Shown here piece by piece: positions 1-31,769 of a stretch of DNA of 64,000 nucleotides. The position numbers and the translations under genes were made by a program. Origin of the DNA: Raja brachyura. Lineage: Eukaryota. The stretch is taken from assembly GCA_963514005.1 (NCBI GenBank), contig OY740807.1, positions 2,046,001 to 2,110,000 of the forward strand. The letters are read 5' to 3'. Below the pieces are notes generated by a model that worked only from the letters and a program-made list of their open reading frames with translations, made no database searches and was not told the DNA's origin. Position 1 is the first letter of the stretch. Each line of letters starts with the position of its first letter.

Positions 1-1040
1 TCCCAGGAATCAGTCTGGTGAATCTTCTATGTACCCCCTCTATGGCAAGAATGTCTTTCCTCAGATTTGGAGACCAAAACTGTATGCAATACTCCAGGTG
101 TGGCCTCACCAAAACCCTGTACAACTGCAGTAGAAGCTCCCTGCTCCTATACTCCAATCCTTTCGCTATGAATGCTAACATACCATTTGCTTTCTTCACT
201 GCCTGCTGCACCTGCATGCCTACTTTCAATGACTGGTGTACCATGACACCCAGTTCTCGTTGCATCTCCCCTTTTCCTAATCTGCCACCATTCAGATAAT
301 AGTCTACCCTCATGTTTTTGCCACCAAAGTGGATAAACTCACATTTATCCACATTATACTGCATCTGCCCATTCACTCAGCCTATCCAAATCACCCTGCA
401 GCCTCCAAGCATCCTCCTCACACCTAACTATACCCCCCAGCTTGGTGTCATCTGCAAATTTGGAGATGTTGCATTGAATCCCCTCGTCCAAATCATTAAT
501 ATATATTGTAAATAGCTGGGGTCCCAGCACCGAGCCTTGCGGTACCCCACTAGTCACTGCCTGCCATTCTGAAAAGGACCCGTTTACTCCTACCCTTTGC
601 TTCCTGTCTGCTAGCCAGTTCTCTATCCATTTCAATACTGAACCCCCAATACCGTGTGCTTTAAGTTTATATGCTAATCTCTTATGCGGGACCTTGTCGA
701 AAGCCTTCTGAAAGTCTAGATATAACACATCCACTGGTTCTCCCTTATCCACTCTACTAGTTACATCCTCGAAAAATTATATCAGATTTGTGAGACGATT
801 TACCTTTCGTAAATCCATGCTGACTTTGTCCAATGATTTCACCACTTTCCAAATGCGCTGCTATCCCATCTTTAATAACTGACTCTAGCAGTTTCCCCAC
901 TACCGATGTTAGACTAACTGGTCTGTAATTCCCCGCTTTCTCTCTCCCTCCTTTTTTAAAAAGTGGGATTACATTAGCTACCCTCTAATCCTCAGGAACT
1001 ACTCCAGAATCTAAGGAATTTTGAAAAATTTCTAAGGAAT
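1..1040 (-). mobile_element. CR1 (HER1-type) LINE fragment, RT region
   Basis: ORF 354..752(-) has CR1 RT motifs [30 protein letters not shown]; frameshifted and runs off the window edge. Confidence 0.9.
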
Positions 1041-1044
1041 TCCA

Positions 1045-1478
1045 GTCCGTGCCGACTATTTATTTTCCCCTAGTCCCATCTACCTGCACTCAGACCATAC
1101 CCCTCCATTCCCTTCCCGTCCATATACCTATCCACTTTACTTTTAAATGTTAAAATCGATCCTGCCTCCACCACTTCTGCTGGAAGATCATTCCACACAG
1201 CCACCACTCTCTGGGTAAAGAAGTTCCCCCTCATGTTACCCCTAAACTTCTGTCCCTTAATTCTCATGTCATGCCCTCTTGTTTGAATCTTCCATACCCT
1301 CAATGGGAAAAGCTTATGCACGTCAACTCTGTCGATCCCTTTCATCATTTTAAAGACCTCAATCAAGTCCTCCCTTAACCTTCTGCGCTCCAAAGAATAA
1401 AGACCTAACTTGTTCAACCTTTCTCTGTAACTTAGTTGCTGGAACCCAGGCAACATTCTAGTAAATCTCCTCTGTACA
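1045..1478 (-). mobile_element. CR1 LINE 3' end (GGTTATAT-tail subfamily)
   Basis: ORF 1070..1483(-) is the CR1 ORF2 C-terminus (GLYSLERRRLR, FFTQRVV..WN); nearly identical to copies at about 11700-12100, 27900-28300 and 62800-63140. Confidence 0.88.
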
Positions 1479-1489
1479 TACATTTTTAA

Positions 1490-2090
1490 TGTACATACAT
1501 TTTGTATTATGTGGGGGGGGGACTATTTTTTTTATCTCTTTCCTCGACGGAGATGCGACTTCTTCAACGTATCTCGTCTGCACAACGGCTTTAACACCGT
1601 GGAGCTGGGAGAAAAGGAGGAAATTAGGGATAAGTTACTTGACTTCCATCACAGTGGGGAATGTGAGGTCGCCGAAAAAACAAGATGGACTTGCTGCCTG
1701 CACTGGTGAGGACTCGGAGGCAGTGCCGTGAGTTCAGTGAGCTCGGTGTTTTGCAGGGACATGGCTCCGTGAGGACATCCCGGAGTCTGCGAGTGTGGAC
1801 GGGACGGTTCGGGCGGACAGGGACTGCAGAGAGAGTGACTGCGGTCGGTACAACTCTGGTCACATCACGGTGAAGGAGCGCGTGTGTGGCCCGGACATTG
1901 AACTGATGGCTTTGGGTCTCCGCTTATGCTGTGGCCCTGGGGATTCTCACACGCCGCTGTGGTGGCTGTTTAAGTCGATGTGTAATTTGTATGTGGTTAT
2001 GTATCTTGTTGTTTTTTTGAATGGTTGTTGGCAAATCAAATTCCTGGTATGTTTACATACTTGGCTAATAAATTAATTTCAATAAGAATT
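1490..2090 (+). mobile_element. Internally deleted Rex1/Babar-like LINE derivative (APE endonuclease remnant plus 3' tail)
   Basis: Translates in pieces as LAALVRT, TWLREDIP and RADRDCRES..GHITVKERVCGPDIEL, typical of Rex1/Babar EN; 3' tail ...catacttggctaataaa at about 2055-2072. Confidence 0.65.
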
Positions 2091-2099
2091 AAACGACAT

Positions 2100-2301
2100 T
2101 GAATTTGCCGTCAGCAGATTCTAAAGCGCCGGAAATCAGTCTCCGCCCACACAGGTTTCCTGGCCCCTCCCACTCATTACATTCCGGTTAATAAAGACAA
2201 CCAGAGGCTCTGGTTTCCAGACACTGGACCCCGAGCGGCTCCCGGACTTTGCAGTACAACACGAGTGGGTCTGAAGATTTGGTGTTCGCCTGTCCGGAAG
2301 A
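2100..2301 (+). promoter_or_regulatory. Putative IgL promoter region
   Basis: Directly upstream of the leader ATG. ETS-like CCGGAAAT 2129-2136 and ATTCCGG 2181-2187, GC box CCGCCC 2143-2148, TATA-like TAATAAA 2189-2195. Only degenerate octamers (ATTTGCCG 2103-2110, CTTTGCAG 2247-2254). Confidence 0.45.
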
Positions 2302-2350
2302 ATGGCCCCAGCGCTGCACCTCCTGTGGCCTCTGCTGCTGCTCCCAGCAG
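2302..2350 (+). CDS. IgL leader exon (MAPALHLLWPLLLLPA-G)
   Basis: ATG at 2302, hydrophobic signal peptide, donor CAG|GTGAGA at 2350/2351, phase 1. Confidence 0.88.
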
Positions 2351-4995
2351 GTGAGACTCGGGTTGGTTCACGACTGATTAGCTGCAACGAGGCTCGTTAA
2401 AATCTCCACCATCGTCGGTGCTCTACGCGTGTCTAGCCTTCTGTGGGCTCCAGATCACCCAGTCGTTTCATCTGTCCATAAGTGATGGGCCATTCAATCT
2501 CTATCTGATCTATCTCTTTCTCCTAACCCCATTCTCCTGCCTTCTCCCCATAACCCCTGTCACCCGTACGAAACACGGATCTATCTATCTCTGCCTTAGC
2601 TTGGCCTAAACCGCCGTCTGTGGCAATTAATTCACCTCCCTTGGACTAAAGAAACTCTTCATCATCTCATTCTGAAGGAATGTCCATTAGTTCTGAGGCT
2701 TTGATTAAGGTTTTCATTGTGTTTTGTTGAAGGTCTCCTGGCGATCCCAGTCCTGAATCAGACCCCAACGTCCGGACCTGTCTCCGCGGCACAAACCGTC
2801 CGCTTAGAGTGTCGGATGCAGAACGGAAATGTTGCAAGTTACAGTGTAAATTGGTATCGACAGCGTCCCGGGGAGAGACCAGAGTGGGTGATAAAGTATG
2901 AAACGGATAATGATATATTCCGTGGCAGTGGGATCACAGACCGGTTCCAACCGTCCAGAGATACCTCCGCCAACAGCTACATCCTGACCATCGGCACCCT
3001 GGAGCCCAGAGACGCCGCCGTCTACTACTGTGCAGTGTGGGAAAACAACGTGGGATACATCTTCAGCCCTGGGGGTATCCTGGATATAATTAGTAAGTGA
3101 CTCCCTCGTTCTGTTCCCATGAATCCCCTTTGCAGTCGTTCTCATTCCCCAGTCCGGGAACGCTCTGGAAAAACTTGCTCTGCCTCTACTCGGCGCGGGA
3201 GGCCATTCTGCCCATCGGGTCCGCGCCGTACGTCAGCGGTCGGGAGAGTATTCCCGCCTGCGGGGAACGCTAGCCCGCGGGGATTCCTGCATCGTTAACA
3301 CAAGTCGCAGTTTGCGACAATCAAACGCGTTAATGTTGGGGAAACAAGGAAGACAATTTGCAGGCATTCTGATGAATGACATTGAGGGGAATACTGTGCA
3401 GCGGGTTGGGCAAGTCGGTTAGAGAGTGTAGCGGGAAAGGACGTGTTGGCTCGGGGTGTAATCCGGGATGAACCGGTCGCTTCCTCGTCTCTTCACCTCT
3501 CAATAGTTTGCGGAGCCGCGCTGCTTCCCGCCGCTCCCCTTGCGTCACTTGACAGGGAGTGTTGGATATCCGGAGGCCTCTCCGGTACCGGTACTTCCCG
3601 CCATAACTCCTTAAAGTGGGTGCGGCACATTGGCTCAATGGTAGATATGTTGCCTCACTGCGCCAGATTCCCCGGTTCGAGCCTGACCTCGGGTGCTGTC
3701 TGTGTGGGGTTTGCAAGTTCTCCCTGTGACTCCCTGCGATTGCTCCGGTTTCCCCCCACATCCCAAAGACGTGCGGGTTTGGAGGTTAATTGCCCGACGG
3801 TGAATTGCCCCGAGTGTACGGGGAGTGGGTGAGAAGCGGGATATCATAGAACTAGTGTGAACGGGTGATAATGGTCAGTGTGGACTCGGTGGGCCGAAGG
3901 GCCAGTTTCCATGCTGTGTCTCCTAAAATAGCTACATTCGCAAATTCACATTCAAGCGAATTCCAGAGCTGGGGAATTATTGAACCCCGCAATGAAGTCG
4001 TCTCGACAGAGCGACGTAAAGCCGAGCGGCGCCAGGTGGAGGGACGAGGCCGGGACGGGGTGATGTTGCTCAAGTGGGTTTAGAGCTCTCGGCCTGGTGT
4101 TGGCTGCAAGGCGACAGCTGCGATTAACCTGGGCCAATCTTCATTAGCCGGCTTAGACCTGCTGGGTTCAATAGCCGCGTCCTTTTCCTCGACTTTCACG
4201 AATTGTTCGCGTCATCGACGGTCTTTTAGTTTTAGTTCTAGTTTTAGAGACAGCCCGAAAACAGGCCCTTCGGCCACCGAGTCCACACCGACCAAAGATC
4301 CCCGCAAACGAACATTACCCTACAAACACTAGGGACAATTTTACATTGATACCAAGTCAATGAACCTACACAACTGTCCGTCTTAGGGGTGCGGGAGGAA
4401 ACCGAAGATCTCGTAGAAAACCAATGCACACACGTCACGGTGATAAACGTACAAACTCCGTACGGACATGCACCTATATTTAGGATCCGACCCGGCTCTC
4501 TGGCGCTGTAAGACAGTTGCTCCAGCGCTGCACCACCGCGCCGCCCAGTCACTGACACTTTCCGTGGCCGAGTTCGTTTCTCTCGCGTTGGGGTCAGTGT
4601 GTGGCGCTGCCGACGGTCTCCATCAACTAATAATGTTTCTCTTCTCCTCCGCCTCTCCACACACAGGTAGCGAGTCTCGGAAGCCCTCACTTCTCCTGCT
4701 CCCTCCGTCTCCGGATGAAACTGGCACGGGCTCGGCCACACTCAGCTGCCTGGTGAGCGGCTTTAAGCCGGGCTTCGCGGCGCTGCGCTGGGCCGTGGAC
4801 GGCGTGGAGACGGAGAGCGGGGTGACGTCGGGCGCCGTGTCCCCGGACGCCGAACAGACGTACAGGCTGAGCAGTTACCTGCGGGTCCCCGCCGCCGCAT
4901 GGGACAAGGGCTCCAGCTATTCCTGCAGCGTCGGACATAGCTCGCTCAGCTCGCCTCTACGACACACCGTCTCGTCGTCCACCTGCGCGAACTGA
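2302..4995 (+). CDS. IgL: Immunoglobulin light chain, germline-joined VJ, sigma-cart (type I/NS5)-like; join(2302..2350,2733..3092,4667..4995), 245 aa
   Basis: Three exons with GT-AG phase-1 introns splice in frame (49+360+329=738 nt). Hydrophobic leader; V domain with C..WYRQRPG..DAAVYYC; J fused in frame; C1 domain (ATLSCLV..W..YSCSV.H) ending TCAN with the inter-chain Cys. Confidence 0.93.
2490..2700 (-). mobile_element. Degraded CR1 3' fragment in the leader-V intron
   Basis: tcctgccttctccccataaccc and following sequence resemble CR1 3' ends elsewhere in the window. Confidence 0.5.
2733..3092 (+). CDS. IgL pre-joined V-J exon
   Basis: Acceptor gttttgttgaAG|GT at 2732/2733; IPVLNQTP...LECRMQNGNV...WYRQRPG...YYC-AVWENNVGYI-FSPGGILDII; donor A|GTAAGT at 3092/3093; no heptamer/nonamer between V and J. 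Confidence 0.95.
3618..3930 (+). mobile_element. HE1-like V-SINE (tRNA head, V-domain, CR1-derived tail) in J-C intron
   Basis: A-box-like tggctcaatggt, B-box-like ggttcgagcc, V-SINE core gctccggtttccccccaca, CR1-like tail gggccgaagggccagtttccatgctgt. Confidence 0.8.
4224..4546 (-). mobile_element. HE1-like V-SINE, opposite orientation, in J-C intron
   Basis: Reverse-strand tail aaacaggcccttcggcc, core cgggaggaaaccg, head ccaccgcgccgccc; (ttttag)n tail at 4224-4246. Confidence 0.8.
4667..4995 (+). CDS. IgL constant exon (C1 domain)
   Basis: Polypyrimidine tract plus CAG|GT at 4666/4667; KPSLLLLPPSP..ATLSCLVSGFKPG..W..YRLSSYL..YSCSVGH..TCAN*. Confidence 0.95.
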
Positions 4996-5262
4996 GTTCG
5001 TGCCATTGGCATCGGCTGCCAATTCTCTGCTATGTTTAACACAGAGAGAGCTTCACTGTGGTCTGCCGCCACCTTGAGCAATGTAACCTATAGCAATGTC
5101 CACTTCTGGGAACAACACGAATATGTAATTATCTCAGAGATCAGTGCGAATTTCTTTGTAGATTTGTCCCCTGTGTCTTAATGCCTCTGGCTGCAGAGTG
5201 GGGGGAGATTCCCACGTAGACAGTAACCGTGTTGTGATTGGATCTGGTGTATCTCAGCTCTT

Positions 5263-5268
5263 AATAAA
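5263..5268 (+). terminator. Probable polyadenylation signal of the IgL gene
   Basis: First AATAAA after the stop (about 270 nt downstream), followed by GT-rich sequence. Confidence 0.6.
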
Positions 5269-5704
5269 GAGGAAAAACTGCGGTGTGATTCCATTGGTCT
5301 ATTTTCACGCGGTTCCTCGCAGTACATTGAGGGGTTTGGCGCAAAGACCTGGCGATCAGGAGCCGCCTTATACACAACTACAACCAGTTCCGCTCAAACG
5401 GCTCATTCTGCTCCTCTTGATCAATAGCACACTGTGTCCCGCACCGACCTCTTCCCCCCCCCTCTCCCACCGTCTGCCGGTCCCTCTATTCTGCGTCCCG
5501 TCTCCCTTACCTCCATCGCAACCTCACGTGTTTATCCTGCTCCCCATTTCCCACCTACCCCCCCCCCCCCCCCCCCCGCTCCCTCTGGATGCCAGATGCA
5601 CAATCTCGCCGCTCTTTGGTCAAATTTGGGGGTGGGGACACACACACACACACGAAACACGGAGCTGGACTCTTCCGCTCTGAACCATCCATGGAACACG
5701 TGGG

Positions 5705-5850
5705 TAGGTGAAAACTCGGGTAGAGACCCTTCTTCAGATTTAGCTCCGAACCAAAACGCTGAAGAAGGGTCTCGACCCGAAACGTCACCTATCTCCTGCG
5801 CTCCGTAGATGCTGCTGCACCCGCTGAGTTTCTCCAGCCTTTTGTGTACC
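5705..5850. repeat. Head-to-head pair of Penelope terminal-repeat units carrying a minimal hammerhead-ribozyme core
   Basis: 5705-5737(-) and 5759-5791(+) are inverted copies; the + copy reads CTGAAGA-A-GGGTCTCGACCC-GAAA-CG-TC. Confidence 0.7.
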
Positions 5851-6084
5851 CCCGTCACCTATCCATGTTCTCCATGGATGCTATCCGACCCATTACCAAT
5901 GCCTTTCCATGGTAAACCAGCATCTGCAGTTGCTTGTTTGCAGTTGCCGCTATAAATGAACGAAGTTCTCAGAACTCAGTAAGTGTGACGCTATCTCTCG
6001 GGAAGCATTCGCTACTGAGGGCCTAATGGGTGAACAGTAAAGTACACAAGAGCTGATCACCGGGTTGTGAATGTTTCTGAATAA

Positions 6085-7436
6085 ACTGCAGATGCTGGAA
6101 AATCGAAGGTAGACAAAAATGCTGGAGAAACCCAGCGGGTGAGGCAGCATCTATGGAGCGAAGGAAATAGGCAACGTTTCGGGTCCAGAGGGCGGGGGGG
6201 GGGGGGGATAAGAAAGGAAGAGGCGAAGACAGTAGGCTGAAAGAGAGCTGAGAAGGTGAGGAGAAAGCAGGGACTACCTGGAATTGGAGAAGTGCAGTCT
6301 AGATAGCCATAGGGGTCAGTGGGTGTCGGCCAGTACATCTACTTACTGACCGACATCTACTATAAACCCACTGAGTCCCATGGGTATCTGGACTAAGCTG
6401 CTTCCCACCCCGCTTCCTGTAAGGACTCCATCCCCCACTCCCAATTCCTCTGTCTACGCGGCATCTGCTCCCAGGATGAGGTGTTCCACTCCAGGGCATC
6501 GGAGGTGTCCTCATTCGTCAGGGAACGGGGCTTCCCCTCTTCTACTATAGATGAGGCTCTCACCAGGGTCTCTTCTATACCCCATAACTCTGCTCTCATT
6601 CCCCAACCGCTCACTCGTAACAAGGGCAGAATCCCCCTTGTCTTCGCCTTCCACCCTACCAGCCGTCACAAACAACAAATAATTCTCCGACTTTTTCGCC
6701 ACCTCTAACGGGATCCCACCACTGGCCACATCTTCCCATCTCCTCCCCTGTCTGCTTTCCACAGAGACCGCACCCTCTGTAACCCTGCTCAATTCATCCC
6801 ATCCCACCCAAACCACCCCCTCTCCTGGCACTTTCCCTTGCAACTGCAGGAAATGCTACACTTGTAGCTTTACCTCCCCCCTCGACTCCATTCAAGGACC
6901 CAAGCAGTCTTTCCAGGTGCGGGAGAGATTCACCTGCACCTCCTCCAACCACATCTATTGCATCCGCTGCTATAGGTGTCAGCTGCTCTACATTGGCGAG
7001 ACCAAGCGTAGGCTTGGCGATCGCTTCGCCCAACACCTCCGCTCGGTTCGCATTAACCAACCTTATCTCCCGGTGGATCAGCACTTCAACTCGCTCTCCC
7101 ATTCCGAATCTGACCTTTCAGTCCTTGGCCTCCTCCATGGCCAAAGTAAGGCCCACCATAAATTGGAGGAGCAGCACCTCATATTTCGCTTGGGCAGTTT
7201 ACACCCCAGTGGGTTGAACATTGACTTCTCCAGTTTCAGGCAGTCCCTGCTTTCTCCTCCCCTTCTCAGCTCTCCCTCAAACCCACTGTCTCCGCCTATT
7301 CATTTCTTCTTTTCTTCTTCCCGCCCCCCACCCTCACATCAGTCTGAAGAAGGGTCTCGACCCGAAACTTTGCCTATCTCCTTCGCTCCATAGATGCTGC
7401 CTCACCCGTTGAGTTTCTCCAGCATTTTTGTCTACC
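6085..7436 (+). mobile_element. Penelope-like retroelement (RT C-terminus plus GIY-YIG endonuclease) with inverted terminal repeats
   Basis: ORF 6917..7393 has IYCIRC..C..LYIGETKRRLGDRF.QH (GIY-YIG); about 6105-6295 is an inverted copy of about 7223-7436. Confidence 0.88.
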
Positions 7437-7974
7437 ACTGGGCTGTGAATGGTCCTATTAAAGACAGGGCTTTATTTCGTTAATACATGAGCATTTATTG
7501 ATCGGTTCATTAATTAGACACACGCGATGTGAGTTACAACCACAGACTCTCACAAATAATTCAATGAATGCCCACAGAAACGATCATGAGGTGAAATGGG
7601 TGTCTGAGGGGTTGGGTGAAGCCATTTCATTGGGGTTGATGATTGAGGAGAAGGTGGGAGCTGGAGATTGGGTGTAAAGTATAAGGAAAGTCAGGATGCC
7701 GAGTTTAATGCTGCATACCGATATTGTATGTGCCGTAAGTCTCAATGAATGGTTAGAGAAGTATAAATAAAAATATGGAGATTGTCAGGGTGCAAAGACT
7801 TGTGTCATGAGGTAAGAAATTCCAACCGGATAAACAGCGTTTTTTATTGAGACCAGTCATTAAATTATAGAGCGGCACATCACAGAAACAGGCCCTTCAG
7901 GTCACCTTACCCCTCCGACCAAGTTGGCATGCCGGGCTAGTCACATTTGGTTGTAAGCTGTGGGCCGAGCATCG

Positions 7975-10090
7975 AAAATAGAAACATAGAAATTAGGTGC
8001 AGGAGTAGGCCATTCGGCCCTTTGAGCCTGCACCGCCATTCAATATGATCATGGCTGATCATCCAAATCAGTATCCCGTACCTGCCTTTTGTCCATACCC
8101 TCTGATCCCCTTAGCCACAAGGGCCACAACTAACTCCCTCTTAAATATAGCCAATGAACTGGCCTCAACTATCCTCTGTGGCAGAGAGTTCCAGAGACCC
8201 ACCACTCTCTGTGTGAAAAAAGTCCTTCTCATCTCGGTCCAAAAGGATTTCCCCCTTTTCCTTAAGCTGTGACCCTTTGTCCTGGACCTCCCCAACATCG
8301 GGAACAATCTTCCTGCATCTAGCCTGTCCAACCCCTTAAGAATTTTGTAAGTTTCTATAAGATCGCCTCTCAATCTCCTAAATTCTAGAGAGTATAAACT
8401 GAGTCTATGCAGTCTTTGTTCATAAGACAGTCCTGACATCCCAGGAATCAGTCTGGTGAACCTTCTCTGCACTCCCTCTATGGCAATAATATCCTTCCTC
8501 AGATTTGGAGACCAGAAATGTATGGAATACTCCAGGTGTAGTCTCACCAAGACCCTATACAACTGAAGTAGAACCTCCCAGCTCCTATACTCAAATCCTT
8601 TTCCTATGAAAGCTAACATGCCATTCGCCTTCTTCACTGCCTGCTGCACCTGCGTGCCTACTTTCAATGACCGGTGTACCATGACACCCAGGTTGTGCTG
8701 CATCTCCCCTTTTCCCAATCGGCCTCCATTTAGATAATTGTTTTCCTATTTTTGCCACCAAAGTGGATAACCTCACATTTATCCACATTATACTGCATCT
8801 GCCAAACATTTGCCCACTCACCCAGCCTATCCAAGTCACCCTGCAGTCTCCTAGCATCCTCCTCACAGCTAACACTGCCCCCCAGCTTAGTGTCATCTGC
8901 AAACTTGGAGATATTGCCTTCAATTCCCTCATCCAGATCATTAATGTATATTGTAAATAGCTGGGGTCCCAGCACTGAGCCTTGCGGTACCCCACTAGTC
9001 ACTGCCTGCCATTGTGATAACGACCCGTTTACTCCTACTCTTTGCTTCCTGTTTGCCAGCCAGTTCTCTATCCACATCATTACTGAACTCCCAATGCCGT
9101 ATGCTTTAAGTTTATATACTAATCTCTTATGTGGGACCTTGTTGAAAGCCTTCTGGAAGTCCAGATACACCACATCCACTAGTTCTCCCCTATCCATGCT
9201 ACTAGTTACATCCTCGAAAAATTCCACAAGATTCGTCAGACATGATTTACCTTTCGTAAATCCATGCTGACTTTGTCCAATGATTTCACCACTTTCCAAA
9301 TGTGCTGCTATCCCATCTTTAATAACTGACTCTAGAAGTTTCCCCACTACCGATGTTAGACTAACTGGTCTGTAATTCCCCGTTTTCTCTTTCCCCCCCT
9401 TCTTAAAAAGAGGAGTTACATTTGCTACCCGCCAATCCTCAGGAACTACTCCAGAATCTAAAGAGTTTTGAAAGATTATCACTAATGCATCCACTATTTC
9501 CGGAGCTACTTCCTTAAGTACTCTGGGATGCAGCCTATCTGGCCCTGGGGATTTATCGGCCTTTAATCCATTCAATTTACCCAACACCACTTCCCGACTA
9601 ACATGGATTTCACTCAAGTCCTCCTTTGACCCGCGGTCCCCTGCTATTTCCAGCAGATTATTTATGTCTTCCTTAGTGAAGATGGAACCAAAGTAGTTAT
9701 TCAATTGGTCCGCCATATCCTTGTTCCCCATGATCAACTCGCCTGTTTCTGACTGCAAGGGACCGACATTTGTTTTAATTAATCTCTTTCTCTTCACATA
9801 TCTATAAAACTTTGCAGTCAGTTTTTATGTTCCCTGCCAGTTTTCTTTCATAATCTATTTTTCCTTTCCTAATCAAGCCCTTTGTCCTCCTCTGCTGGTC
9901 TCTGAATTTCTCCCAGTCCTCTGGTATGCTGCTTTTTCTGGCTACTTTGTACGCATCATCCTTTGCTTTGATACTATGCCTGATTTCCCTTGTTATCCAT
10001 GGATGCACTACCTTCCCTGATCTATTCTTTGCCAAACTGGGATGAACATTTTTTTTAGTTCATCCATGCAGTCTTTAAATGTCTTCCATT
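7975..10090 (-). mobile_element. CR1 LINE, 5'-truncated, with (TTTCTATG)n-type tail
   Basis: ORFs 8730..9797, 8068..8718 and 9802..10035(-) give CR1 RT and C-terminus; tail at 7975-7991. Confidence 0.92.
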
Positions 10091-10253
10091 CTAGAAAATG
10101 TTTCTAGAATTTGTGTCACCCGTGTCTGGGAAATACTTGAAAGTTTGCACAGATTTAGATATAACATAATTGAGAAGGAAGTCATAACTCGTCAGTGCAA
10201 AAAGTTGCACGTTAATTCATGAATCCAATTAGAATATGATGTCGAAAAAGTAG

Positions 10254-10287
10254 GCGCCATCTAGTGTCTAACACCCATATTACTGCA
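10254..10287 (-). promoter_or_regulatory. Candidate CTCF site (core plus upstream TGCAG module)
   Basis: Minus strand reads TGCAGTAAT-n11-ACACTAGATGGCGC, one mismatch to CCACTAGATGGCGC; lies in a short island with no recognisable TE. Confidence 0.5.
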
Positions 10288-10394
10288 TGGGAGCTTAATT
10301 CTGTGCTGCTGTTTTAACATATATATATGCTTGAGAATATGAGTGTAATTATATATAATTATATTATATAAATATAATATAACGAATATAATTT

Positions 10395-12170
10395 TGCAGA
10401 GCCAAAAGAGTTGGGGGAGATATTGAACAATTTATTTTCTTCGGTATTCACCAAGGAGAAGGATATTGAACTCTGTGAGGTAAGGGAAAAAAGTAGAGGA
10501 GCTATGGAACTATGTAGAGGAGAGTAGAGGAGCTATGGAGATTCAAAGAGGAGGAAATACTTTTGAAAAATATAAAAGTGGATAAGTCTCCAGGTCCTGA
10601 CAGGATATTCCCTAGGACATTGAGGGAAGTTAGTGTAGAAATAGCAGGAGCTATGACAGAAATATTTCAAATGTCATTAGAAACGGGAATAGTGCCGGAG
10701 GATTGGCGTACTGCGCATGTTGTTCCATTGTTTAAAAAGGGTTCAAAGAATAAACCTAGCAATTATAGACATGTTAGTTTGATGTCAGTGGTGGGCAAAT
10801 TAATGGAAAGGATACTTAGAGATTATATATATAAGCATCTGGATAACCAGGGTCTCATCAGGAACAGTCAACATGGATTTGTGCCTGGAAGATCATGTTT
10901 GACAAACCTTCTTGAATTTTTTGAAGAGGTTACAAGGGAAATTGATGAGGGTAAAGCAGTGTATGTTGTCTATATGGATTCCAGTAAGACCTTTGCCAAG
11001 GTTCCCCATGGAAGGTTGGTTAAGAAGGTTCAATCTTTGGGTGTTAATGGCGGAGTAGCGAGATGGATTCAACAGTGGCTGAATGGGAGATGTCAGAGAG
11101 TAATGGTGGATGGCTGTTTGTCAGGTTGGAAGCTGGTGACCAGTGGGGTTCCTCAGGGATCTATGTAGGGTCCACTGTTGTTTGTCATGTACATCAATGA
11201 TCTAGATGATGGGGTGGAAAATTGGATAAGTAGGTATGCAGATGATACTAAGATAGGTGGTGCTGTGGATAATGAAGTAGATTTTCAGAGTCTACAGAGA
11301 GATTTGGGCCATTTGGAAGAGTGGGCTGAAAGATGGCAGATAGAGTTTAATGCTGATAAGTGTGAGGTGCTACATCTTGGCCGGACAAATCAAAATAGGA
11401 CGTACATGGTAAATGGTAGGGAATTGAGGAATGCTGTGGAACAGAGGGATCTAGGAATAACTGTGCATAGTTCCCTGAAGGTGGAATCGCATGTAGATAG
11501 GGTGGTAAAGAAGCTTTCGGTGTGCTGGCCTTTATAAATCAGAGCATTGAATATAGGAGGAGGGAAGTAATGTTAAAATTGTACACGGCATTGGTGAGAC
11601 CAATTCTGGAGTATGGTGTACAATTTTGGTCGCCTAATTATAGGAAGGATGTCAACAAAGTAGAGAGAGTACAGAGGAGATTTACTAGAATGTTGCCTGG
11701 GTTCCAGCAACTAAGTTACAGAGAAAGGTTGAACAAAGTTAGGTCTTTATTCTTTGGAGCGCAGAAGGTTAAGGGGGGGACTTGATTGAGGTCTTTAAAA
11801 TGATGAAAGGAATAGACAGAGTTAATGTGGATTAGCTTTTCCCATTGAGGGTAGTGAAGATTCAAACAAGAGGGCATGACATGAGAATTAAGGGACAGAA
11901 GTTTAGGGGTAACATGAGGGGAACGTCTTTACTCAGAGAGTGGTGGCTGTGTGGAATGAGCTTCCAGCAGAAGTGGTGGGGGCAGGATCGATTTTAACAT
12001 TTAAAAGTAAAGTGGATATGTATATGGACGGGAAGGGAATGGAGGGGTATGGTCAGAGTGCAGGTAGATGGGACTAGGGGAAAATAAATGGTCGGCACGG
12101 ACTAGAAGGGCCGAGAAGGCCTGTTTCCGTGATGTAATTGTTATGTGGTTATTGTTATATGGTTATATGG
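10395..12170 (+). mobile_element. CR1 LINE, 5'-truncated (GGTTATAT-tail subfamily)
   Basis: ORFs 10563..11168, 11178..11537 and 11522..11785 have RT motifs (YADDTKIGG); tail gttatatggttatatgg at about 12155-12170. Confidence 0.92.
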
Positions 12171-12462
12171 TGATATCATGACGTCGTTGGCTGTGTGACG
12201 TCATGAGGTCATATGCTTGCTGCAGGGCAAGTTATGTTTGTAAAAGTGCTTTTTGTAAAGTTTATAATGTGAATAACTTGTAAAATATACCATCAATCTG
12301 AACAAAACTTTCATACACCACACCACAGGACAATGGTAAGGTAAGCCAAAAATATTTGCGCTATCGTGTTGACTTAATTGCAGGACCACTCTCATAGACA
12401 GACAAACATACAAGATGAGAGTTTGAAAGATAGACAGACAGACAGACAGACTGACAGATAGA
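12170..12462 (-). repeat. Non-autonomous Helitron-like repeat, 5' part, with (GACA)n microsatellite
   Basis: (GACA)n/(GATA)n tract 12429-12465; shares gttattcacatt..aaa..cacttt..acaaa with 14012-14055 in inverted orientation; class assignment tentative. Confidence 0.35.
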
Positions 12463-14010
12463 TAGAGGGGAAAGGGTAACTAGAGAGAGAGTAGGACCTC
12501 TCAGGAATAAAAGCGGTCACCTCTGTGTGGAGCCACAGCAGATGGGTAAAGTCCTCAATGAGTATTTCTCCTCTGTATTTATTGATGAGAAAGACAGGAG
12601 GATGGAGGAAATTGGAGCGGTCACTGGAAGTGTCATGAGAGCAGTCAGGGTTACCGTCGAGGAAGTACTGAAGGTACTGTCGTGTTTGAAGGTAGACAAA
12701 TCTCTGGGGCCTGATCAGATATATCCGATGATATTGCAGGAAATTGCGGGAGCCCTGGTTGAAATTTATGAGTCGTCCTTCAATACAGGAGAGGTGCCAG
12801 AGGATTGGAGGGTGGCAAATGTTGTGCCTCTTTTCAAGAAGGACTTCAGGGAAAATGTTGGAAACTATAGGCTGGTGAGCTTAACATCTGTAGTTAGTTA
12901 GTTACTGGAGAGTATTCTGTGGGATAGAATATACAGGCATTTGGATGGGCAAGGGCTGATTAGGGACAGTCAGCATGATTTTGTAATTGGGAGGTCGTGT
13001 CTCACAAATCTGATCGATTGTTTTGAAGACGTGACCAAAAAGGTTGATGAGGGCAGCGCTGGAGATGTGCACATGGAGTTTAGTAAGGTGTTCGACAAGG
13101 TGCCGCATGGTAGGCTGCACTGGAAGGTTAGATTTCATGGGATCCAAGGAGAGATAGCTGAATGGAAGCAAAAGCGCTCCATAGAAGGAAGCAGAGGGTG
13201 ATGGTGGAAGGTTGGTTCTCAGAATGGAGGCATGTGACTGGTGGTGTGCCACAGGGTTCGGTGCTGGGCCCATTACTGTTTGTCATCTACATCAATGATT
13301 TGGATGAGAACGTACAGGGCAAGATTAGCAAGTTTGCTGATGGTTAGTGGTTTTGCAGATAGTGAAGATGGTTGTGAACGATTGCAGCAGGATCTGGATC
13401 GATTGGCCAGGTGGGCGGAGGAATGGTTGATGTAATTTAATACAGAGAAGTGTGAGGTGTTGCATTTTGGGATGTCGAACAAGGGCAGGACCTACACAGT
13501 AAATGGTCGGCCTCTGGGTCTTGTTGTAGAGCAGAGGGATCTAGGAGTACAGGTGCATGGCTCGTTGAAGGTCGAGTCGCAGGTAGATAAGGTGGTCAAA
13601 AAGGCTTTTGGAACTTTGTCCTTCATCAGTCAGAGTATTGGGTATAGAAGTTGGGTGGTCATGTTGCAGTTATATAAGATGTTGGTGAGACTGCATTGAG
13701 AGTATTGCGTTCAGTTCTGGGCACCATGTTATAGGAAAGATATTGTCAAGCTTGAAAGGGTTCAGAAACGATTTACGAGGATGTTGCCAGGACTAGAGGG
13801 TGTGAGTTACAGGGAGAGGTTAAGTAGGCTGGGTCTCTATTCCACGGAGCTTAGGAGGATGAGGGATCTTATAGAGGCATACAAAATCATGAGAGGAATA
13901 GATCAGTTGGATGCACAGAGTTTTTTACCCAGAGTATGGGAATCGAGGACCAGAGGACATTGGATCAAGGTGAAGGGGAAAAGATTTAATACAAATCCGA
14001 GGGGTAACTC
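12463..14010 (+). mobile_element. Degraded CR1 ORF2 (RT half), apparently the continuation of 14570-15430
   Basis: Begins at the (G)KRVTRERVGPL-equivalent; ORFs 12527..12901, 12941..13201, 13162..13347, 13457..13699, 13781..14080. Confidence 0.88.
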
Positions 14011-14569
14011 GGTTATTCACATTTTAAATTGTACGAAAACCACTTTGACAAAAATCACTTCCACTTGTACAGCCCGTTAGCAGCGTATGACGGCACAATG
14101 CGATCCCGAATCTCACTTACTTTAAAAAATGCTTTTTTCAAAAAAGGAATTTTACATTTGCATCAAAAATAGCAGAAAAAAAATTGTTTAAAATAAAATC
14201 ACGATTTTCATTGTGGGGGGCGGGATGGGGGGAGGTTTCCATTTCTATTTAAAAATAGCGGGAAAATAACTACCTTTTCAAAAAAAACATCGCGATTATC
14301 ATTTTGAAGGGATGGGATAGGGGGGAGGTTTCATTTGGAAACATTGCGATTTTCATTGAGTGAGTGAGGGAGGGGAAATGAAAGGGAGGGAGAAGGGAGG
14401 GAGAGGTGAGGGTGGCAGTGGGGGAGGGGAGGAGGAGAGGAGAAAGAAGAGGGAGGGTGAAGAGTGAGGGGAGTTCTGCAGGATGAGGGAGAATGGAGGA
14501 GGAGAGGGGTAGAAGGAGGGATGGCGAGGTAATTGCGTTGGGGACCAGGCCTCCCGTGTGAAGGTCGAG
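14011..14569 (+). repeat. Non-autonomous Helitron-like repeat, 3' part, with purine-rich tract
   Basis: Related to 12170-12462; internal duplication (aaaatagc..gaaaa...cgatt.tcatt) and GA-rich tract 14360-14525. Confidence 0.3.
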
Positions 14570-15430
14570 TATTTATAAAATCTTTTGGGATTATGTTTCA
14601 TGCTGCCCACCAGAGCTATCTCCTGGCCTGTTTTTGCCCTTCTGATCTCCTTTTTTAGTTTGCTCCTTGCTTCCCGAAACTTCTGAAGGGATGCACTTGA
14701 TCCCATCTGCCTATACCAGTCCCATGCATCCTTCTCGTTTTTGACTAACATCTCCATTTCCCTTGTCAGCCAAGTTTCCCTACGTTTGCCTGCTTTGCAT
14801 TTTACTCTTAACGGGGACGTACACATCCTGAGCTCTCATCATTACACTTTTGAAGACATCCCACTTGGCCGATGTCCCTTTTCATCAAATAACCTGCTCC
14901 AGTCAACTTGAGCAAGACCTACTCTCATACCCTCAAAGTTGGCCTTACCCCAGTTGGGCATTTTAACATGTGGACCCTCTCTGTCCCGACCCATAGCTAT
15001 CTTAAACCTAATCGAACTGTGGTCACATGTCCCAAAAGGCTGCTCCACACACACTTCATTAACTTGCCCTTCCCAATTTCCCAATACTAGATCCAGCGTT
15101 GTTCTCTCACGTGTGGGGGGGGTCTGTAGTACACTCCCAACAAGCTGATCATCCTTTTCTTGTTGCTCAGCTCCACCCACTAGACAAACTGTCCATAATG
15201 TCACCTCTGAACACAGCCGTGACATCCTCCTTAACCACAATACAACTCTTTTTTCCTCACCCTGTTTCTCCTGAAGCTCCTGTACCCCACAACATTGAGC
15301 TGCCAGTCCTGCCCCTCCCCTTTCCAGGTTTCAGTCATGGCTACAACGTCCCAGTCACTCGTAGCTATCCACTCCCTAAGCTCATCTGCCTTACCCGTCA
15401 AGCCCCTTGCATTAAAATACATGCAGTTTA
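14570..15430 (-). mobile_element. CR1 ORF2 endonuclease half
   Basis: ORFs 15231..15422 (YFNARGL..MTETW), 14842..15240 (LDLVL..DH) and 14353..14826, the CR1 part ending NPKRFYKY. Confidence 0.85.
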
Positions 15431-15569
15431 ACCAACCCTCCTTCCCCTCTCTCCGGCTTTTTGCCTATTCAGTACATTAACCTTTCCCACACCACCCTCC
15501 ATACCAACTTCTAGCCTCTCCTGTGCCTCTGTCCTGTATGAGATCCCTCATGACATTACCGTCACCTCC

Positions 15570-16860
15570 AATAGGATCCCACCATTAATCACATATTAAT
15601 GGCCTCCCTGTAGATGTGGCCTAGTGCACGTCAGCGAGACCAAGCATAGATTTGGCGACCACGTTGCCGAACACTTGCGCTCAGTCCGCCAAGGCCCACG
15701 GGATCTCTGGGTTGCTAACTGAACTCCGCTCCCTATTCCCACACTTACCTTGCTGGGCCTTCAATATTACCAGAGTGATGCCACACACAAATTGGAGGAA
15801 CTGCACCTCATATTCCCCCCCCCCCCCCCCCCCCCCAGCGTCACAGTTCACAACTAGTTATTCCCCTTGGGCTCTCACCTGTTTTTATCCAACAATTGGC
15901 CTATCAGGGAATCTACTCACCTGAGGTCATCTCTCCAGCTTTTTCTCACTTTTGAAGCTTTAGCAAGAAGATGGGCAGTGTAGGACTTTGTATTCCTTTG
16001 AGCACAGGAGGCTGAGGGGTGATCTGAGGGGCTTTCAGTACATGGGCCTTCATCAGTCATGGTATTGAGTGTAGAAGTTGGCATGTGTAAGAAGGAACTG
16101 CAGATGCTGGTTTAAACTGAAAGACACTAACAGCTGGAGAGAAGGAATGGATGACTTCGAGTATTGTGTATGCGCCGATTTACAGTATTGTGTTCAGTTT
16201 TTGCCTGCCTGCTTTTGGAAGGATTTTATAGCTGGAAAGAGTGCAGGGATGATTTACAAGGATGGTGCCAGGAATTAAGGACCCGAACTATAGGGAGAGG
16301 TTGAGCAGGCTAGGACTTCATTTCTTGGAGCGCAGGAAGACGAGGGGTGTTCTTATTGAGTGTATAAGATCATGAGGGCATAAGTTTGGGTAAATGCATG
16401 GTCTTTTACCCAATGTAGAAGAATCAAGAACCAATGGGCATAGGTGTAAGCTGATAGGGGAAAGATGCAATAGGAACCTAAGGAGTAACACAGATGGTGG
16501 TGGGTATATGGAACGAGCTCCCAGAGGAGGTAGTTGAGGCAAGTACAATAACAACAGCCGAGTTACTTCTCCATGGTCAACCTTTCTTCCCACCCCCTCC
16601 CCCAGTCCCCTCAAGCAATTACCAAACCACCAGGGCAACTTCTTGTTGGTTCATTGTTCCTCCCCGAACACCGGGTTTCACCTAATGTGTGGGACAGAAC
16701 TCAGACGGCATCTCTGGAGAAATGGAATAGGTGGCATTTCGGGTCCAGACTGAAGGGTCGGGTCTGAAGAAGGGTCTTGACCCAAAACGTCACCTATTCC
16801 TTTTCTCCAGAGATGCTGTCTGACCCACTGAGTTACTCCAGCTTTTTGTGTCTACCTGCT
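15570..16860 (+). mobile_element. Mosaic of degraded Penelope (about 15570-15820), CR1 3' fragments (about 15960-16550) and a Penelope terminal-repeat pair (16705-16855)
   Basis: gagaccaagc..ggcgacc..gccgaacac (GIY-YIG remnant); CR1 C-terminal sequence; ctgaagaagggtcttgaccc unit. Confidence 0.65.
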
Positions 16861-17159
16861 TTCACCTATCACATCCCAGTCCCTGCCTCACCCCTCCTTC
16901 CCATCCACTACTTTGGACCAAAGATCCTATAGCAAGCAAGATAGATCACTCGACGAAAAATACTTTTCCAGACCTACTGGAGTGCTCAATGAATTGGATA
17001 AAGAGATGAGGGGCAGGGAGAGAGATGTAGTGCGATTATTGTCACATGTACCGAGTTACAGTGAAACGCTCTGATTTGCAGACTGTACAATCAGATTAGA
17101 TAACACTATACATAAATACAATCGTCAAACTCACGTCAAGGAGCAAAGGGGAAAGGTGC

Positions 17160-19312
17160 AGACTACAGAAACAAACAATTGGTGATGCTGGTTTACAAAT
17201 AAAGACAGTGCTGGACACAGCAGGTCAGGTAACATTTCCGGAGAACATTGGTAGGTGATATTTCAGGTCGGGACCCTTCTTCAGTCTGATTAGGGGTAAG
17301 GGAATCGAGAGATATAAAAGGTGATGTTGAGAGATAAAGAACAATGAATAAAAGATATGCAAAAAAAGTAACAATGATAAAGGAAACAGGCCATGGTAAA
17401 CTGTTTGTCGGGTGAAAATGAGAAGCTAGTGCGACGGGTGGTGGAGGGGATTCGAGAAATATAAAAGGTGATGTTGAGAGATAAAGAATGATGTATAAAA
17501 GATATTTAATTTGCGTTTAGCCTCACTCTGACAATGGAGGAGACCGAGGACAGAAAGGTCTATGTAGGAATGGGAAGGAGAATTAAAGGTGTTCTGCGAA
17601 ACGATCGCCCGGTCTGCGTTTGGTCTCACCGATGAATAAGAGTCCACATCTTGAACAACGGATACAGTAGACGAGGTTGGAGGAGATGCAAGTGGACCTC
17701 GGTCTAACCTGAAAGGACTGTCGGGGTCCCTGGACAGAGTCGAGGGAGGAGGTATAGCGACAGGTGTTGCATCTTCTGCGATTGCAGGGGAAGGTACCTG
17801 GGGAGGAAGTATTTTGGGTGGGAAGGGATGGGAGTTGCAGAGGGAACAGTCTCTGCGGAAAGTGGTGGAGATGCGAAAACGTGGCTAGTGGTGGGATCCC
17901 ATTGGAGGTGGTGGAAATTTCTGAGAATTATGTGTTCTATGCGACGGCTGATGGGGTGGAAGGTAAGGACTAGGGGGACTCCTGTCTTTGTTGCATCTAG
18001 GGAGAGCAAGGGCAGAGCTGTGGGGTACCGAGGAGACATGAGTGAGGGCCTCATCTGTGATGGGAGTGGGGAAGCCCCGTTCCCTAAAGAATATGAACAT
18101 CTCGGATGTTCCAATAAGGAACACCTCATCTTGGGCACAGATGCGGCGTAGACGGAGGAATTGGGAGTAGGGGATAGAGTCTTTAGTAGAGTGAGAAGAA
18201 GTGTTGTCAATAGACAATGGACAATAGGTGCAGGAGTAGTATTTCGCCCCTTCGAACCAGCACTGCCATTCAAAGTGGTCATGGCTGATCATCCACTATC
18301 AGTACCCCGTTCCTGCCTTCTCCCCCATATCCCCTTCCTCAAATTTGGGGACCAAAACTGCACACAATACACCAGCTGTGGTCCTACTCGGGCCCTGTGC
18401 AACTGCAGAAGGACCTCTTTGCTCCTATACTCAACTCCTCTTATTAGGAAGGCCAACATGCCATTCGCTTTCTTCACTGCCTGCAGTACCTGCATGCTTA
18501 CTTTCATTGACTGATGAACAAGAAACCCCAGATCCCATTGTACATCCCCTTTGCCCAACTTGATACCATTTAGATAATAATGGAGGAGACCGAATACAGA
18601 AAGGTCAGTGCAGGAATGGGAAGGAGAATTAAAGTGTTTAGCAACCGGGAGATCAGGTTGGTTCAAGCGGGCTGAGAGAAGGTGCTCTGCGAAACGATCT
18701 GTGTTTGGTCTCACCGATGTATAAGAGTTCACATCTTGAACAACGGATACGGTAGATGAGGTTTGAGGAGGTGCGTGAACTTCTGCTTAACCTGAAAGGA
18801 CTGTTGGGGTCCCTAGACAGAGTTGAGGGAGGAGGTATAATGACAGGTGTTGCATCTTCTGCGATTGCTGGGGAAGGTACCTGGGGAGGAAGTGGTTTGG
18901 GTGGGAAGGGATGAGTTAATCAGGGAGTTGTGGAGGGAACGGTCTCTGTGGAAGCCGGAAAGGGGTGGAGATGGAAAAATGGGGTCAGTGGGGGGATCCC
19001 GTTGGAGGTGGCGAAAATTTCAGAGGTTTATGTGTTGTATGCGATGGCTGATGAGGTGAAAGGTAAGGAGTAGGGGGACTCTGTCTCTGTTGCGACTAGG
19101 GGGAGGGGCAGCAGGAGTGGAGCTGCGGGGTACTGAGAGACATGAGCAAGGGCCTCATCTATGATGGGAGAAGGGAACCCCCGTTCCCTAAAGAATGAGG
19201 ACATCTCAGATGTTCTAGTTTGGAACACCTCATCTTGGACGCAGATGTGGCGTAGACGGAGGAATTTGGAGTAGGGGATAGAGTCTTTGTTGGAAGCAGG
19301 GTGGGAAGAAGT
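17160..19312 (-). mobile_element. Two partial Penelope-like copies (about 17160-18205 and 18578-19312) separated by CR1 fragments
   Basis: Reverse-strand matches to the 6400-7400 Penelope (SIPYSQFLRLRRICAQDE; DRFAEHL..HFNSPSH). Confidence 0.82.
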
Positions 19313-19317
19313 ACGTC

Positions 19318-19708
19318 ATAGAAACATAGGAAATAAGGGCAGGAGGCCATTCGGCCCTTCAAGCCAGCACCGCCATTCATTGTGATCATGGCTGATCGTC
19401 CCCAATCAATAACCCGGGCCTGCCTTCTCCCCATATCCCTGGATTCCACCGGCCCCGAGAGCTCTATCTCACTCTCTCTTAAATCCATCCAGTGATTTGG
19501 CCTCCACTGCCCTCTGTGGCAGGGAATTCCACAAATTCACAACTCTCTGGGTGAAAACGTTTTTTCTCACCTCAGTCTTAAATGGCATCTCCTTTATTCT
19601 AAGACTGGGGCCCATGGATTTGGACTCGCCCAACATTGGGAACATTTTTCCAGCATCTAGCTTGTCCAGTCCTTTCATAATTTTATATGTTTCTATAAGA
19701 TCCCCTGT
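19318..19708 (-). mobile_element. CR1 3' end fragment
   Basis: ORF 19469..19711(-) GDLIETYKI..FTQRVVNLWNSLP; catagaaacatag tail. Confidence 0.85.
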
Positions 19709-22560: not shown

Positions 22561-22769
22561 GCTTGGTCTCACCAAAATACAGGGGCAGAATGTAGTTCTC
22601 AGCAACTAACCACATGGTGCCTGGTTGCTTACCATAGTGTACCAGTTTCAGAGACAAAGTCCAATGTCCCCAGTGGGGTAGAGGGGAAACAGAGAGTATT
22701 CTAACTTATGCAAGAACCATTCAGAAGCCTGATAGCAGATGTAGAAACACCTTATAGGAAAAAGTAGAA

Positions 22770-23215
22770 AAAGGGAGCTGTAGATGTTGATTTACAAGGA
22801 AAGACACAAAATGCTGCAATAACTCAGCGGGTCAGGCAGCATCCCTGGAAAACATGAATAGATGATGTTTCCTGTTGAGACCCTACATCAGACTGCAAAT
22901 CCAAAATCACGCCTATCCATGTTCTCCAGGGATGCCGCTTGACCTGCTGAGTTATTCCAGCACTTTGTATATTTCCAACAGATGGAAAGAAACTGATCCT
23001 GATTCTGATGGTTAACAAAGAACTGCAGATGTTGGAAAAATCGAAGGCAGGCAAAAATGCTGGAGAAACTCAGCGGGTGAGACAGCATCTAGGGGGCGAA
23101 GGAACAAGCGATGTTTCGGGTCTGAAGGAGGGTCTCGACCCAAAACGTTGTCTATTCTTTTGCTCCCTAGATGCTGCCTCACCCGCTGAGTTTCTCCAGC
23201 ATTTTTGTCTACATT
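22770..23215. repeat. Cluster of Penelope terminal-repeat units in alternating orientation
   Basis: Several gatgctgcc..gctgagtt.ctccagca units; ctgaaggagggtctcgacccaaaacg at 23122-23147. Confidence 0.7.
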
Positions 23216-23544
23216 CTGATTCTTGTCCTTTCAAACTTAATGGCGTATAACGTGGCAAAGTTATTGTCTTTAAAGAGAACACTACTGCATATGACACTAT
23301 TAAATATAGACACTGAGAACGTATAAAGACGTTTTGCACCGTTTTTGTTTTGTATGGTCGGCACGGACTGGAAGGGCCGAGAAGGCCTGTTTCCGTGCTG
23401 TAATTGTTATATGGTTATATGGTTATATGGTTATATGGTATATATTTTTTTTCTGAGTGAAACTTATTTTTGAAATATATAAACATATTCAGGAATTGGC
23501 AATACCGGAAACGATGGCTTACCATCGAGATGGCATTTGGCTTT

Positions 23545-25335: not shown

Positions 25336-25339
25336 GCGG

Positions 25340-26285
25340 TATCTGGTCCCTGTGGAACTGGGTGAGCCCAGAGCGGCTTGAAGTGTACAAAGTCATTGTT
25401 TTGGCTGGCAGCATGTCAGAATCCCTGAGGAAGGGCATCACCATCCTCGTATACAAGCAGAAGAGGGAGTACATCAGGAATTGGAGACCCATCTCACTTC
25501 TAAATGTGGACTATAAAATATGTCCAAGGCCACTGCCAACTGGGTCAAGTCTGCTCTGGAACAAGTGCTCCACCTGGACCAAACCTGTGCCGTCATTGGC
25601 AGAGCGGTGGACACCTGGCTGGTCAGTTTGGCCCTGGAGAAGGCCTTCGATAGGATATCACACATATACATGATGGATGTGTCCTCCAATATAAGCATTT
25701 GGGAGGTGCCCAAGAAATGGATCCTGATTCATCTCTGCGTAGATACCCGTAGTGCACTCCAAAACAATGGGTGGGAAATGGTTAGCTTCCCCTTCAGATC
25801 AGGAGTCAGGCAGGGTCAGTCAGCCACTCTCCCGTCTTATTCAGATGCAGTTAAGAACCCTTTGCTAAATCCATCAGGAAATATGAGAACAGAAGAGGGG
25901 TGGCATTGCCAGGCAGTAGAGGCACTCAGAGCAAAGCCTCCCTGTCCATGGATGATGTCGCCATCTTCTGCTTGGATCCACAGTTGGCCCACACTTTGGT
26001 CAGCATCTGTGACCAGTTTGAGTTGACATTGGGAGCCGGAATAAACCGTAAGAAGAATGAGGCTCTACTCTTTGGTATCTGGGCCGACTGATCTTCCGTC
26101 CCTTCACCATTAGGTCTGACTACCTGAAGGTGCTGGGAATCTGGTTCAGAGGAGCTGAGACAAGCAACAAGAATTGGCTACAATAGAGAGCCAAGGGCAA
26201 ACAAAAATTGAAAGCAGTGTTCTTTCAATAATCAGAAAAAAATTGGTTATTGGGTGTGAGCTGCTCTCGGGACTGCTGTACTTAG
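25340..26285 (+). mobile_element. Tx1-like (L1 clade) RT fragment
   Basis: NWRPISLLNVDYKI, EKAFDRISH, SGVRQG and SMDDVAIF across ORFs 25362..25673, 25520..26026, 25900..26091. Confidence 0.75.
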
Positions 26286-31300: not shown

Positions 31301-31769
31301 TTGTGTACTTGAATAGAATGAGTAATCCCTGCCGGTCAGATTTGCAATCCTCCAGACATCTGTATATGTGTGTTTTTTAAATATGTATTTAGAGGTTCGC
31401 TAGTTTTGGATTTCGTAATACCTCTCTATTTTTGATTGGATTTATCTAAGTAGGGGTCTAAAACACAGTTAAAATCTCCGTTGATTATGACATTCTGGTA
31501 ATTCTATTCTGCAATTATATTCAAGATTTTATTGAAAAAATACGGATTGTCAAAGTTGGGTGCATATATGTTTTCCAAGGTAATTGGGGTTGCATGGATC
31601 TCCCCGGTAACTATCAAATATCTCCCCTCCTTATCTGTTAAGGTAGTTTTGGATTTAAATGAAATGCCTTTGCGAATAATAATAGACGTTCCTCTAGATT
31701 TCGACGTGTATGACGAGTGAAAAGTTTGTCCTATCCAGTTCACCCTCAATCTAGCTTGATCTAGCTTTC

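Follow-up and report, generated by a model that had tools for sequence, protein, structure and literature searches.

The locus at positions 2302 to 4995 of the window (the whole 64,000-nt stretch of Raja brachyura DNA analysed here) raises the question of how an immunoglobulin light-chain gene comes to carry its V and J segments already joined in the genome, and whether such a joint is inherited or was captured in the assembly from a lymphocyte. We place a probability of about 0.9 on the reading that this is an intact, germline-joined sigma-2 gene from which B cells would produce a ready-made chain, an ancestral split cluster having been joined in the germ line. When spliced together the leader, VJ and C exons (Table 1) amount to 738 nt and encode 245 aa and a stop in an open frame. 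The intron boundaries are GT..AG, with the donors GTGAGA and GTAAGT and the acceptors AAG and CAG. These features are consistent with the in-frame splicing proposed in a preliminary description of the locus, which was also right in stating that both introns have been kept. The repeat fragment in the leader-V intron is marked by a spike in contig depth and by loose ends. Pfam recognises a V-set domain (E 2.5e-16) and a C1-set domain (E 3.6e-20), and the canonical residues are all in place: Cys 43, Cys 116 and Trp 57 in the V domain, Cys 164 and Cys 223 in the C domain, and the terminal Cys 243, which is the putative bond to the heavy chain. The architecture is that of a light chain, comprising a split leader, one V-set VJ exon and one C1-set exon without a transmembrane exon.

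Table 1. Coordinates of the light-chain gene and of the duplication that contains it (window positions).
Feature	Position	Strand	Details
Leader exon	2302..2350	+	49 nt; 16 codons plus one base; split leader
Leader-V intron	2351..2732	+	382 nt; high-copy repeat fragment at ~2505-2600
Fused V-J exon, sigma-2 type	2733..3092	+	360 nt; 86% identity to Leucoraja type I V-J
CDR1	2822-2845	+	8 aa; within fused V-J exon
CDR2	2897-2917	+	7 aa; within fused V-J exon
Germline-fixed CDR3	3032..3061	+	10 aa, across the V-J joint; without heptamer, nonamer or spacer
J / FR4 part	3062..3092	+	FSPG replacing FGXG; GTAAGT donor at end
J-C intron	3093..4666	+	1574 nt
C1-set constant exon, single	4667..4995	+	329 nt; Cys164, Cys223, C-terminal Cys243, then TGA
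AATAAA, putative polyadenylation signal	5263..5268	+	
Inverted duplication arm	11..33881		99.7-99.95% identity; other arm at G000:C29 ~2.30-2.35 Mb (L093-L096, L103-L104)

A single reading frame leads from the YYC motif (3023) through the CDR3, AVWENNVGYI, to the J phenylalanine codon at 3062 and on to the J donor. A strict scan for recombination signal sequences (RSSs; at most one heptamer and two nonamer mismatches) returned no site in the whole window, and a relaxed scan of positions 2000-5300 found none at the joint, the four weak sites (3728, 3802, 4436 and 4601) all lying in the J-C intron. Together with the reading frame, these scans confirm the earlier observation that V passes straight into J with neither RSS nor spacer. 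Tblastn searches of the window with VJ and C (E ≤ 1) revealed no second V or C exon and a scan for J motifs found no second J, in agreement with the claim that the 59 kb downstream hold no other V, J or C segment. In the J motif (3062-3073) the first glycine of FGXG is replaced by serine. FSPG is present in all 12 close relatives among the matches listed, and as these include the named Leucoraja type I chains, the motif is a lineage variant of FGXG. It is fixed in the main skate sigma-2 group and is not found in the group on contig C47, described below, or in stingray gene models.

The sequence supports assignment of the gene to the sigma-2 (type I, sigma-cart) immunoglobulin light chains, the type named in the preliminary description. 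Among 74 hits the best match with a single V and a single C is the ‘type I immunoglobulin light chain' of Leucoraja erinacea (86% over V-J), and over the full length 216 of 245 residues (88%) are identical to those of AAA87170.1; a near-length protein search gave one hit. The lengths of CDR1 and CDR2, 8 and 7 residues when IMGT-style boundaries are placed manually relative to the conserved Trp, are those given for sigma-2 in the accessible text of PMC5985310. A quick V+C tree of 66 rows, which carries a long-branch warning and draws its rows from outside the labelled kappa and sigma references, places the gene beside the type I chains of Leucoraja and Amblyraja (SH-aLRT 95), in a 49-row sigma-2 clade (99) that stands apart from lambda-like and sigma-like rows. 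The grouping with the named type I chains is likewise supported in a V-only tree of 49 rows and 95 columns (SH-aLRT 98). Seven full-length relatives, on contigs of ~1 kb, read leader-VJ-C, with a CDR3 of 10 aa in six and of 9 aa in one. A PDB sequence search returned only generic antibody fragments and left the isotype unsettled.

The extent to which the joint is shared was revealed by the rest of the genome. A DNA search identified 11 matches, all spanning V and J, nine of which are on contig C29 (1.52-2.41 Mb); the other two are on C47. The same 11 were recovered when V and C each served as a protein query, and beyond them identity falls from 61% to 45% or less. Every copy comprises a leader, a fused VJ and a C exon with canonical splice sites, and none has an RSS at the joint. 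The comparison of CDR3s over paralogous clusters, which the preliminary description had advocated, gave 10 residues in all 11, and the CDR3 is identical or near-identical across the eight intact C29 copies. As a control, the RSS scan was applied to other V genes of this assembly, where signals were found beside 8 of the 10 V ends of heavy-chain-like or TCR-like genes, one signal being weak, and beside both sigma-like V ends, showing that the assembly is not broadly rearranged. The 21 runs listed include none recorded as RNA, and a transcript of this copy was not seen. Reads were compared in 4 of the 21, of which X1, containing 0.95 of the words and possibly the source of the assembly, was excluded as support. 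Contigs from runs X5 and X12, which derive from two other, related organisms, cross the joint into the J-C intron (3003-3120 with 4 differences, and 2948-3117 with 12, respectively). A contig of run X4, from a third such organism, skips exactly the 382-nt leader-V intron at GT..AG; since X4 has no record as an RNA run and is ~96% alike, the contig is evidence for the family's splice sites rather than for expression of this copy.

A VJ joint free of RSSs is what a B cell would carry, and the preliminary description had identified a somatic rearrangement, caught by the assembly from lymphocyte DNA, as the event that would undermine its view of the gene. Such an event would, however, have to account for 11 joined copies on two contigs with one CDR3 length, for the near-invariant CDR3 of the intact C29 copies, for the RSSs retained by heavy-chain-like and sigma-like V genes of the same assembly, and for the same joint in the intron-containing contigs of other organisms; we consider it extremely improbable. 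Because all 11 copies are joined, contigs of relatives cross the joint into intron, and RSSs are kept elsewhere, the view that the V-J joint is inherited and is not a lymphocyte rearrangement is indirectly supported, as the preliminary description held. Its account of the CDR3 as fixed stands for the germ line, although in B cells the loop may still hypermutate, the term ‘potentially somatically mutated' being used in the available part of PMC2192082. There is a similarly negligible probability that the gene encodes no light chain and belongs to the non-rearranging IgSF genes, whether UrIg-like or of the multi-V receptor kind. Multi-V proteins of cartilaginous fish do head the protein search, occupying nine of its first ten rows at 43-52% identity (the tenth is a fused horn shark model), and genes with a joined VJ can be annotated automatically as light chains (PMC12227049). 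The multi-V proteins outrank the type I chain by summed score alone, however, displaying just 41-52% identity against 88% for the named type I chain, and the gene has one V and one C1 domain followed by a terminal Cys and a stop, in a window without a further C exon. The best match is thus neither a T-cell receptor nor a non-rearranging IgSF protein, both of which the preliminary description had considered, and the UrIg and UrIg2 layout, in which at least three C domains follow a single VJ (PMC12227049), is not seen, the single C exon ending in a stop. Elsewhere in the genome, many tandem joined-VJ-like exons at G000:C8 88.2-89.2 Mb (L069, L070) are RSS-free, are 41-43% identical to this V and resemble the top-scoring multi-V proteins; one lies inside an open frame of 1904 aa.

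The 11 sigma-2 copies, 10 of which are intact, spread by segmental duplication. The exception, L049 (G000:C29 1.525 Mb), is frameshifted by a 7-nt deletion in FR1 of V, its leader and C being otherwise intact. The two copies on C47 (L050 and L051, at G000:C47 2.24 and 2.41 Mb) constitute a second joined sublineage, characterized by 61% V identity, an FGGG J motif, the CDR3 AVRETDAVYY and a short leader intron (148-149 nt), with relatives in Amblyraja (P0067) and Leucoraja (P0090). V-J exons are identical within three pairs of copies. The inverted duplication that includes the gene under study spans at least 44 kb, including 10 kb upstream of the window; its mirror is on the other strand ~0.3 Mb away, and identity drops to 96-98% in pieces further along. 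The V-J exon of the other arm is identical to that of this gene, and the L042 copy differs by two C-exon positions. Either the segment was duplicated recently, or the second arm is a false duplicate of an allele. The five distinct intact C29 V-J sequences display 28 replacement against 2 silent changes (pN/pS 4.4, p=0.015), with 12 replacement changes in the 37 sites of CDR1 and CDR2 versus 14 in 211 framework sites (p=5e-5) and 2 in the 24 sites of CDR3, all of these numbers being plain tallies relative to the majority codon, with neither a tree nor a model of gene conversion. Judged from these sequences, selection appears to concentrate the differences between copies in CDR1 and CDR2. In Raja erinacea ‘at least 89' type I clusters were estimated, according to the accessible portion of PMC2192082, compared with the 11 found in this genome. 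The gap could reflect a species difference, alleles, a PCR artefact or assembly collapse.

In the model that we favour, a split V-RSS...RSS-J cluster of the horn and nurse shark style likely underwent one or a few joining events in an ancestral germ line, probably by RAG, and the join would have been clean enough for the V end to provide nearly the whole CDR3. In horn shark gene models, the source from which these V ends are known here rather than from DNA, V ends in ...SAGYI and is succeeded by H-S, the residues that a heptamer would encode, and the spacing from the Cys equals that of the CDR3 in this gene, such that the skate CDR3 resembles a V end placed on J with almost no trimming. The joined cluster would then have multiplied through tandem and inverted duplication, and diversity would now derive from differences between copies and, probably, from somatic hypermutation. 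The joint contains no recognisable N or P nucleotides and therefore bears no direct trace of RAG; joining by RAG in germ cells is suggested by analogy with nurse shark NS4, as described in the available text of PMC2193156. The preliminary description had attributed germline joining to RAG activity in germ cells. The evidence for such activity comes from the kappa (NS4) genes of the nurse shark, but for skate type I the same text goes only as far as to call a joining or splitting event after divergence ‘probable, but not conclusive'. DNA and protein searches of this genome found no split sigma-2 parent. With respect to the number of joins, fused sigma-2 V and J segments are present in gar, turtle and coelacanth as well (PMC5985310, in the part available), a pattern that calls for either more than one join or a joined form of ancient date. 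In the V-only tree, whose deep forks are unsupported, the C47 pair does not group with the C29 copies, and a single joining event is thus unproven. Skate and stingray models have CDR3s in common, for example WESGVGYF, the stingray, sawfish and Narcine rows being gene models; a single joining for all batoids, proposed from these shared CDR3s, was set aside as the V-only tree gave no support at the deep forks.

The joined sigma-2 genes of gar, turtle and coelacanth and the lack of N or P traces at the joint are also what would be expected if the joined state were ancestral, the VJ exon never having been split and the split shark genes having appeared later, which is the standing alternative named in the accessible text of PMC2193156. 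This history is nevertheless quite improbable given that horn shark type I is split, and that nurse shark NS5 has ordinary 12/23 RSSs, oriented as in the split sigma-like clusters of this genome. In addition, recent germline joining is documented in nurse shark NS4 (PMC2193156), and the CDR3 lengths of 8, 10 and 11 in batoid models fit several independent joins. A separate issue is whether this particular copy, lying in a nearly perfect inverted duplication with an identical V-J exon on the other arm, has a function of its own or is instead silent, redundant or an allele duplicated falsely in the assembly. One sister copy is frameshifted, and no exact octamer lies closer than 400 nt to the start codon in any of the nine copies checked; seven have a one-mismatch site at about -317 that is absent from the other two. 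Against redundancy, the frame, the splice sites, the canonical Cys and Trp residues and the poly(A) signal are intact, and the excess of replacement changes in CDR1 and CDR2 argues for selection on the family. We therefore regard a redundant copy as rather unlikely, and it would be compatible, at the level of the family, with the germline-joined sigma-2 gene that we favour.

The gene itself repeats a 30-year-old result, as germline-joined type I genes in skate are a textbook case. Anderson et al. 1995 report, in the part of PMC2192082 available, that all Raja type I genes are germline-joined and expressed, with replacement changes enriched in CDRs; this and reviews bear out the earlier remark that germline-joined light chains are known in skates. 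The little skate type I chains (AAA87170.1 and AAA87171.1) have 87-88% full-chain identity to the one described here, a 10-aa CDR3 and the FSPG J, and in that species, as here, all clusters are joined and replacement changes are concentrated in the CDRs. Compared with the little skate work, this genome shows the positions of the clusters, the pattern of duplication and the divergent joined C47 sublineage. Horn shark type I sigma-2 is of the same isotype and 60-68% identical over V-J, but its genes are split. Nurse shark NS5 is also of this isotype, and two of its genes rearrange, whereas none found here does; the available passages of PMC5192425 and PMC2435157 describe one NS5 gene as germline-joined and pairing with IgM1gj in neonates. 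The germline-joined kappa genes of the nurse shark (NS4; Lee et al. 2000, PMC2193156) resemble this gene in that the RSS and spacer have gone and the introns are kept. They are, however, of a different isotype, and their close split relatives allow P nucleotides to be read, which is not the case here. Finally, lambda (type II, NS3) light chains are germline-joined in all species studied, as stated in the accessible text of PMC5192425; they are thus joined like this gene, and all 25 lambda-like V ends on contig C30 of this genome agree.

Light-chain constant exons were found on four contigs: 9 and 2 of sigma-2 type, 26 and one partial of lambda-like type (C30) and 3 of sigma-like type (C32), these counts being lower bounds, as they derive from three C-domain probes and the best 150 of 233-271 candidates for each. 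Among the V ends that were read, 36 of 38 are pre-joined (11 sigma-2 and 25 lambda-like), and the other two, both sigma-like, are split. The lambda-like clusters, ~27 in number and in two orientations, occupy G000:C30 11.87-12.93 Mb (L023-L041, L052-L056, L074-L092). A V was identified by motif at 25 of the 27 loci and in each case runs into J without an RSS; the remaining two loci consist of one damaged joined V end and one partial C only. The CDR3 lengths of the lambda-like genes (6, 8, 9 and 11) suggest several old joins, and their C domains are 40-45% identical to that of this gene. The sole split light-chain clusters found, L057:6713-7095 and L059 (G000:C32 20.06-20.09 Mb), are sigma-like and are arranged as V with a good 12RSS, ~370 nt, then heptamer and J, the J signal combining a perfect heptamer with a poor nonamer that, at 23-nt spacing, matches at only 2-3 of 9 positions. 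A third sigma-like cluster on C32 has been disrupted by the insertion of a repeat. There was no sign of a fourth, kappa-like group among the best 150 of 233-271 candidates returned by the three non-kappa C-domain probes. Four borderline loci were considered as kappa candidates and rejected, their sequences resembling heavy-chain or other Ig domains. Table 2 of PMC5985310, in the part of that paper available, lists kappa as not detected in little skate. At two further loci, L068 (G000:C30 39.48 Mb) and L071 (G000:C47 8.16 Mb), a heavy-chain-like V runs into J-like sequence, RSS-free and apparently out of frame; these are candidate germline-joined IgH pseudogenes.

By analogy with skate and shark work, in the accessible parts of PMC2192082, PMC5192425 and PMC4279169, B cells likely express this gene directly, its chain being ready-made and requiring no V-J rearrangement. 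The chain would pair with rearranged heavy chains via its C-terminal cysteine, and hypermutation, like expression and pairing, may be expected from the same studies. It is possible, at slightly less than an even chance, that the skate builds its light-chain repertoire with next to no V-J recombination. In that case its B cells would select from ~35 ready-made light-chain genes diversified in the germ line by duplication and selection, and one light chain per cell would need a control other than rearrangement feedback, or several would be expressed. What is new here is the inventory, in which 36 of the 38 light-chain V ends read are pre-joined; a literature search, with most subscription journals outside its coverage, found no genome-wide light-chain inventory for a skate. 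With 11 sigma-2, ~27 lambda-like and 3 sigma-like constant exons mapped on four contigs, expressed chains become assignable to single germline copies. The mapped set makes it possible to test in skates how much of light-chain diversity is contributed by somatic mutation, whether each B cell is limited to one pre-joined gene without rearrangement, and how many times a V-J join has become fixed in the germ lines of batoids. What merits pursuit is a possible near-complete loss of light-chain rearrangement, together with the control of one chain per cell.

The surroundings of the gene within the window include putative fragmented reverse-transcriptase-like frames upstream (147-1522, minus strand) and a putative retroelement-like remnant downstream (6299-7393), both assigned by motif. 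Further along, positions 49939-50815 contain a GC-rich tandem repeat with units of 20, 31 and 51 nt, followed by purine-rich and pyrimidine-rich tracts of low complexity.
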